Origin: a virus
Taxonomy: Duplodnaviria; Heunggongvirae; Uroviricota; Caudoviricetes
IMG/VR virus record: IMGVR_UViG_2531839668_000012
Coordinates: 1 to 8,365 of that record
DNA: 8,365 nucleotides
Strand: one strand, 5' to 3'
Shown: positions 1 through 3,000 of the stretch, piece after piece
Numbering within the stretch: the stretch's first letter is position 1
Layout of the letters: each line of letters begins with the position of its first letter
Position numbers: made by a program

Positions 1-3000
1 TCCGTAACGCCTCTGCCACGCGCGTAACGTGACAGGGATTAAGGGTAAACTAATTGATTTTGCAAGTTTTTATTTTACCCAGCTTTCTTATGGGGCATAC
101 ATGGGACACTTTCAGATAGTCTTTTGTTAAGGAGTTCTATCTGTTCGTGATTGTTGTCTTTCATCCATGCTCCGTAAACATTGAATACCATTTGTGCGTT
201 TGTGTGGCCCATCTGGCTTGCGATAAAACTAGGATTAGCTCCTGCGGCAAGTGACCAGCATGCATAAGTATGCCTGGATTGGTACGATTTTCTGTGTCTC
301 AGACCTGCGCGTTTTAAGATACTTGTCCATGACTCCCTGATGGAGTCAACCTTGTAGTGAGGTCCGGACAACTGCTGCTGTTTTGTTACCTGAGGACTAA
401 AAACAAAAGTGCATTTATGCACAGCAGTTCTCCCATATTCCCTCTGCTTCACCTCTACAGAATGTTGCTTTCCAAGCATGGTCATTTCCGCCTGGCTTTT
501 AAGAGCATCAATAGCTGGTTGAACCAGATGAATTGTCCTTCCGGTGCCTGCATCGGTTTTTGGTGGAGTGAATTCGCCAAGTTTTGTATAATTCCTACGG
601 ATGGTTATAGTCCTTGCTTTAAGGTCTATATCTTCCCATGCCAGCGATACCAGCTCCCCGTGACGAATACCCGTGTATACAGCGAGAATCCACAGGTTTT
701 TTGTTTGTTGATGACGGCAAGCCTCAATAAAACGAATAAATTCGTCACGGGTGAGAGGATCTGGTTTTACCTTGGACTTTTTTAAGGGTGCCAGACCGTT
801 AAATGGGTTTCCTGAGGTATAACCATTATCTGTTGCAAATTGAAACATTCCAGCTATGGTTGTCATATAGTAGTTTACCGTGACCACTGAGCGCCCTTTT
901 ATGGAAGAAGTCTTTCCATTAGAAAGCTTTTGGTAACCGGTCAACAAATCTCTCCTTGCGAAAAGTAAATCCTCTTTTGTTATGGATGAAACTAGTTTTT
1001 TTTCTCCCAACATAGGCAACATGTTTTTAATTACTGACTGGTAACGATTAAGTGCATTCGCACAAATCTCTATTTTCTTCAGTTCAAGCCATTTTTCCGA
1101 AAGTGCCTTAACGGTTATCTCTCTTTTTCCCAGACCAAAGTGTTTCAGGTTAGGGGAATTAGGGAACTGCGCGGCGTAGTCGAAACTCCCCATTCTGATT
1201 GCAAAACAAACGGAAGTGCGAAGTTCACCTGCGATCTTCCGGTTTTTGGCGGTGTCAGGAACACCGAGGTTTTCTCTGACACGTTTGCCATTATAGTGAA
1301 ACCATATACGGAGTGATCCGCCATGGTTTTCAACGCCTGTCGGGTATGATGCGTTACTCATTAAACCTCCCAGACGTCCAGGAGCATTAACAGGTTAACC
1401 GGAACTTGCATTTTTGGCACCTGGTTGTTTCTGGTTTTCGATCCATCGCATAATCTCTTCGATGTTGTACAGGCATTCACTGTAGTGCCCCGGATCACCT
1501 TCTACAGAGTAATGGCGGTATTCTTTTCCCTGTATCCATGACTTTCTTCTGGCCCGCTCGATGGTGCCGGGCTTTAGCCCTGTTGATGCAATAAGGACTC
1601 TCTCCGTACACCATTTGCTGGGGGTTATCTGATAGATGATTGTCTGCATGCCAACCTCATAAAACTTTCATCCACGGCAGTGGAACCACACGTCAAACAT
1701 TCGTTTCACAACTTCACGGCAGTAGAAGCCGTCGACATCACGGGTCAGGTCGTAGCGATTGCCGAATGTCTTGCGAACCCAGAACTCAAAAGCCGTATGC
1801 ATGTATCACCTCCGTTGCATTGCGCGTAATTTTTTCAGGCGCATTTCCTGCTCAGTGCCCGCCAGAATTTTGCGGTACTCCTGTTGGTCAATATGTTCGA
1901 ACAGGTTGTTGAACTCACCAATGCGTACCCGTCCGGAGCGCCCGTCCATGCGTCGAAAGAACACTGAGTGCTGAGTACTGCGAGTAATCACCACAGGGTA
2001 TTATCGTGAGGATGCTTCATCGCCATTGCTCCCCAAATACAAAACCAATTTCAGCCAGTGCCTCGTCCATTTTTTCGATGAACTCCGGCACCATCTCGTC
2101 AAAACCCGCCATGTACTTTTCATCCCGCTCAACCACGACATAATGCAGGCCTTCACGCTTCATACGCGGGTCATAGTTGGCAAAGTACCAGGCATCTTTT
2201 CGTGTCACCCACATGCTGTACTGCACCTGGGCCAGGTAAGCCGATTTTATGGCCTCGAAACCACCGAGCCGGAATTTCATGAAATCCCGGGAGTAAACGG
2301 GCATTTCAGTTCAAGGCCGTTGCCGTCACTGCATAAACCATCGGGAGAGCAGGCGGTGCGCATACTTTCGTCGCGATAGATGATCGGGGATTCAGTAACA
2401 TTAACGCCGGAAGTGAACTCAAAGAGGGTTCTGGCGTCGTTCTCGTACTGTTTTCCCCAGGCCAGAGCCTTAGCGTTAACTTCCGGAGCCGCACCGGTGC
2501 AAACCTCAGCCAGCAGGGTGTGGAAGTAGGACATTTTCATGTCAGGCCACTTTTTTCCTGAGCGGGGTTTTGCTATCACGTTGTGAACTTCTGAAGCGGT
2601 GATGACGCCGAGTCGTAATTTGTGCCACGCATCATCCCCCTGTTCGACTGCTCTCACGTCGATCCCGGTACGCTGCAGGATAATGTCCGGTGTCATGCTG
2701 CCACCTTCTGCTCAGTGGCTTTCTGTTTCAGGAATCCAAGAGCTCTCACTGCTTCGGCCTGTGTCAGTTCTGACGATGCGCGAATGTCGCGGCGAAATAT
2801 CTGGGAACAGAGCGGCAATAAGTCGTCATCCCATGTTTTATCCAGGGCGATCAGCAGAGTGTTAATCTCCTGCATGGTTTCATCGTTAACCGGAGTGATG
2901 TCGCGTTCCGGCTGACGTTCTGCAGTGTATGCGGTATTTTCGACAATGCGCTCGGCTTCATCCTTGTCATAGATACCAGCAAATCCGAAGGCGAGACGGG

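Follow-up and report, generated by a model that had tools for sequence, protein, structure and literature searches.

The exo gene of a lambda-type Red operon in Escherichia coli 3.2303 lacks one base in the available draft sequence and is thereby split into two open reading frames (ORFs), and this deletion is private to one draft assembly. We consider the missing base to be probably a consensus base-calling or assembly error of the draft, in which case the strain would carry the same intact 681-nt exo allele as its closest relatives. The window, by which we mean the whole stretch of 8,365 nt that was analyzed, is the end of the draft contig AFAE02000011.1 (82,023 nt) of assembly GCA_000194645.2. 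A window position p corresponds to position 73656 + p of this contig, and the window ends 2 nt short of the contig end. The locus is a Red operon (gam-bet-exo) of the lambda type, belonging to a defective lambdoid prophage whose insertion site is mlrA; the Red genes are arranged on the minus strand from 2017 to 3900 as in lambda, in the order gam, bet and exo. The features referred to in the following are:

75..1361, minus strand: int, at the left end of the prophage, beside mlrA
1395..1649, minus strand: xis, at the left end of the prophage
2017..2696, minus strand: exo, 680 nt, split into two ORFs
2277..2696, minus strand: 5′ part of exo, a 139-aa ORF with Exo residues 1–135 followed by PGIS and a stop
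2017..2292, minus strand: 3′ part of exo, codons 136–226 and the stop, out of frame relative to the 5′ part and contained in the ORF 2017..2304
2293, minus strand: site of the missing base, from the alignment with two intact relatives; AFAE02000011.1:75949
2693..3478, minus strand: bet, encoding a 261-aa annealing protein of the RecT family (Pfam RecT, 2.7e-33)
3484..3900, minus strand: gam, a 138-aa ORF; the annotated form, 3484..3780, has 98 aa (Pfam Gam, 5.6e-64)
5252..5360, minus strand: remnant of N, the last ~34 codons of the antiterminator gene (YANEFGHK...LTAR-stop), given in RefSeq as 'missing N-terminus'
5355..5612, plus strand: fragment of the late antiterminator Q (C-terminal part), as annotated in strains 98-3133 and STECUZB006, whose sequence is identical here
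8341, plus strand: second one-base deletion (an A), in a gene for a SASA-family esterase; AFAE02000011.1:81997

At the left end of the prophage, the annotated start codon of mlrA (window position 54) and the stop of int (75) are separated by only 20 nt, which puts the prophage at the 5′ end of mlrA; MlrA as annotated comprises 233 aa. We take this to be the same yehV/mlrA site as the one occupied by prophage Sp15 of E. coli O157 Sakai.

In the nearest complete genome, that of the O157:H16 strain 98-3133, the intact exo allele spans 681 nt, and in the alignment the sole difference between the two genes is one C missing from the window. This C is absent at gene position 404/405, at the junction of codons 135 and 136, where ACC TCC on the coding strand has become ACTCC; the intact context reads ...CCCGTTTACCTCCCGGG... 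and that of the window ...CCCGTTTACTCCCGGG.... On the plus strand, a GG is reduced to a single G, the remaining one being the G at 2293, and all relatives have GG. The original prediction, made from this sequence, had described an exo of 680 nt against 681 nt with its two halves in different frames, and both the ORFs and the alignment with the intact allele bear this out. It had placed the frame switch at 2288–2292, which is 1–5 nt away from the G at 2293 although the site does lie inside the wider region of 2277–2304 to which it had assigned the lesion. Its remark that no long homopolymer is present was correct, since the deletion fell in a run of just 2 nt, flanked by runs of CCC, GGG and AAA. 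The ORF 2277..2696 on the minus strand encodes 139 aa that are identical to a lambda-type Exo up to Thr135 and then end in PGIS and a stop, and the ORF 2017..2304, likewise on the minus strand, encodes 95 aa that from SRDFMKF onwards correspond to Exo residues 136–226. The orthologous genes of the closest related prophages at the same site are intact; the same 681-nt span was found in 40 of the 40 best phage matches and in 40 of the 40 best E. coli matches to exo.

We further compared the gene product with characterized proteins of its family. When the one base is restored, the repaired allele aligns over residues 1–226 with lambda Exo (PDB entries 6M9K/1AVQ; E-value 4e-154) with six substitutions, the full 226 aa of lambda Exo as present in the PDB, where 3SM4 is a further structure of this enzyme. 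Both halves match the lambda exonuclease/YqaJ family (PF09588), and homology thus extends over the full length of the protein. The window itself contains no uninterrupted exo ORF of 226 codons spanning the entire YqaJ domain, and the 139-aa ORF covers positions 2–116 of the 150 positions in the YqaJ profile. Asp119, Glu129 and Lys131, which we take to be the catalytic residues of lambda Exo, are all present in the 139-aa product (...SPD119...129LK131CPFT135 by direct reading) and hence sit on a fragment devoid of residues 136–226. Judged from its sequence, the 139-aa product would retain the PD-(D/E)XK catalytic triad and, with residues 136–226 absent, should be inactive.

Both genes upstream of exo have reading frames without interruption and show no difference from their annotated counterparts in strain 98-3133, in agreement with the prediction that bet and gam are intact. 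The operon resembles that of phage lambda in its gene order, the overlap of the bet stop with the exo start (ATGA), the 226-residue Exo alignment, its RecT-family Bet and its Gam of family PF06064, and it also shares the cIII thermoregulator RNA element. It differs from lambda in that the exo ORF is broken after codon 135, at least in the draft, and in that pL, nutL and full-length N are deleted. The thermoregulator element is a full-length Rfam match at the start of cIII (4086..4144, minus strand, 88.5 bits).

We then searched for the deletion in other sequences. A 49-mer spanning the deletion, whose flanks are too short to seed on intact alleles and which hence detects deletion carriers only, found no match in 5,426 complete E. 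coli genomes and none in 50,697 phage records, whereas the control 50-mer containing the extra base matched 4,984 places in 3,521 of the complete E. coli genomes. Similarly, a 27-mer across the deletion had no match in IMG/VR, in JGI metagenome contigs or in the GTDB species genomes. The exact 139-aa protein is on record once (EII77526.1, from one contig) and the intact allele on 325 contigs, and seven complete genomes contain an exo that is identical except for the gap. Thus, the claim that a deletion has inactivated exo holds in so far as the gene is split at the sequence level, but as the lesion is confined to one draft contig, its existence in the organism is doubtful.

The comparison with strain 98-3133 is informative also beyond exo. 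Over 16,091 nt, the draft and this genome differ by zero mismatches and two one-base gaps, both of which are bases missing from the draft. At window position 8341, the second gap puts the esterase gene, which has a median copy number of 5 per genome, out of frame 26 nt before the contig ends. Complete E. coli genomes contain 4,149 homologous places, and not one of them could be matched to the window sequence without the gap. A technical origin of this second deletion is almost certain, so that single-base deletion errors do occur in the draft.

The deletion in exo may well share the technical origin of the second one. A conceivable source of such an error would be reads from the other exo copies. 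Among spontaneous mutations in E. coli, small indels are about tenfold rarer than substitutions, and a pair of indels accompanied by no substitution therefore fits technical error better than divergence. The pattern is that of an artefact in two respects, as the deletion occurs in one assembly only and all discrepancies are indels. It resembles the indel errors known from draft whole-genome sequencing in that the deletion is private, that a second private one occurs at a contig end in a repeated gene, and that substitutions are absent over 16 kb; unlike typical error hot spots, the run affected here is only 2 nt long. This short run counts against an error, since errors of the pyrosequencing type concentrate in long homopolymers, and so does the position of the exo site, some 6 kb away from the end of the contig in a region assembled without a break. 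A literature search by accession and strain name found no paper on the sequencing of E. coli 3.2303. In a genome announcement by a centre that may have sequenced the strain (PMC3715677), an older accession had been produced with 454 Titanium/Celera and newer ones with HiSeq/Velvet, and strain 3.2303 is not mentioned there.

A tenable though less favoured explanation is that the deletion is real, that is, a recent frameshift private to this strain that has turned exo into a pseudogene within a decaying and transcriptionally orphaned prophage. The uniqueness of the sequence in the databases is what a recent private mutation would give as well, and the break cuts the YqaJ domain short, at position 116 of the 150-position profile. 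Moreover, the prophage has already suffered three losses, namely a deletion from N to Q, a 3.3-kb deletion in the b region and the loss of most morphogenesis genes. At the N-Q junction, at about 5360, the last ~34 codons of N on the minus strand are fused to the C-terminal fragment of Q on the plus strand (window 5252..5612). The same junction exists in strains 98-3133 and STECUZB006, where an annotated N 'missing N-terminus' abuts the Q fragment. A fuller relative at the same mlrA site, the prophage of strain 13E0725, contains a full N ORF followed by repressor, cII, O, P and ren. The homology of the window to this prophage ends at 5360, and no match to its 5′ part of N, its immunity region or its replication region was obtained. 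Hence, the N-to-Q deletion removes pL, nutL, the 5′ part of N and the immunity, replication and nin regions. The b-region deletion, again relative to the 13E0725 prophage, has its junction at window 1996..2001, downstream of exo and some 20 nt after its stop; it eliminated the genes for a dATP/dGTP pyrophosphohydrolase, an Ea22-like, a TraR/DksA-like, a DUF1382 and a DUF1317 protein and leaves a DUF4222 gene at 62 codons. In strain 98-3133, most head and tail genes are absent from the prophage.

Since the prophage is decaying and its Red operon is apparently unexpressed, a neutral frameshift in exo is biologically plausible, and if it were real, little of the 139-aa product would be made without pL and N. 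There is also precedent for such a loss, as the lambda-like Exo/Bet/Gam systems of the defective prophages Sp3 and Sp15 of O157 Sakai are disrupted (Asadulghani et al. 2009, PMC2669165). The present case is like Sp3 and Sp15 in that a lambda-like Red system is disrupted in a multiply defective lambdoid prophage, and unlike them in that one base in one draft assembly is concerned and that the closest prophages at the same site have an intact exo. What argues against a real mutation is that 16 kb without a substitution contain two one-base deletions, one of them almost certainly technical, that indels are a minority among natural mutations, and that no second, independent sequence carries the deletion.

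The original prediction had further proposed that a prophage retaining Bet and Gam without Exo could affect host recombination. To evaluate this, we considered how the Red module might be expressed. Its gene order and its intact Bet and Gam are those of a functional module, but pL, nutL and full-length N are lacking. A consensus scan revealed no excess of promoter-like sites in the window over shuffled sequence, and upstream of gam, the coding (minus) strand has terminator-like hairpins at 4620, 4180 and 3830. With pL, nutL and most of N lost and hairpins upstream of gam, Bet and Gam are left without an evident means of expression, and an effect of Bet and Gam without Exo on host recombination is thus not supported. 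As far as can be judged from the sequence, a special recombination state of this kind is unlikely, irrespective of whether the deletion is real or an error. For strain 3.2303 to make Bet and Gam without Exo, the deletion would have to be real and an unrecognized promoter would have to provide low transcription, a combination to which we assign very little likelihood. If it were true, RecBCD activity and single-strand annealing recombination could change modestly, for example in the uptake of oligonucleotide-like ssDNA or in recombination between prophages. The genome of strain 98-3133 contains three exo-like places, and since two of these lie beyond the prophage copy, no host-level consequence is expected.

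A functional change of frame, be it by programmed ribosomal frameshifting, transcriptional slippage or a split-gene arrangement, is the least credible explanation and was rejected because it is not conserved and no slippery site is present: while a -1 shift near ACU would bring back the native frame and an ATG (2304..2302) opens the second ORF, complete genomes have 4,984 intact places and no deletion carrier, the phage, viral, metagenome and GTDB collections have no carrier either, CCCGTTTACTCCCGGGATT contains by direct reading no X XXY YYZ slippery heptamer in the reading frame and no run longer than 3 nt, the 2-nt run at the lesion is too short for transcriptional slippage, and the ATG is a chance product inside codons Lys131–Cys132. 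An alternative split-gene structure was absent from about 5,000 homologous copies, 252 phage records and the other collections, all of which have one 681-nt ORF. Reading the sequence by eye, we saw no Shine-Dalgarno-like sequence before the ATG of the second ORF.

Whether it is a draft error, as we favour, or a private pseudogenization in a dead prophage, the exo lesion is ordinary, as both are of a known kind. If it is an error, it calls for caution in reading biology into single-base frameshifts of old draft assemblies. A real deletion would add a private pseudogene to a prophage that is already without its immunity, replication and morphogenesis regions, pL and N.

Beyond the Red operon and the N-Q junction, the window contains three tRNA genes (in the region of 6054..6303 and 6482..7032), which ARAGORN assigns to Met(cat), Arg(tcg) and Arg(tct); in RefSeq, the first of them is annotated as tRNA-Ile. 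The set resembles what we presume to be the ileZ-argN-argO arrangement found ahead of stx in Stx phages. In the window, the genes that come next on the downstream side are one of the TerB family and one with DUF3927. Between these two genes and the esterase gene are two Rfam matches to small RNAs, both above the gathering score, namely STnc100 (7075..7265, plus strand, 144.9 bits) and the anti-GcvB sRNA AgvB (7266..7327, minus strand, 96.5 bits).
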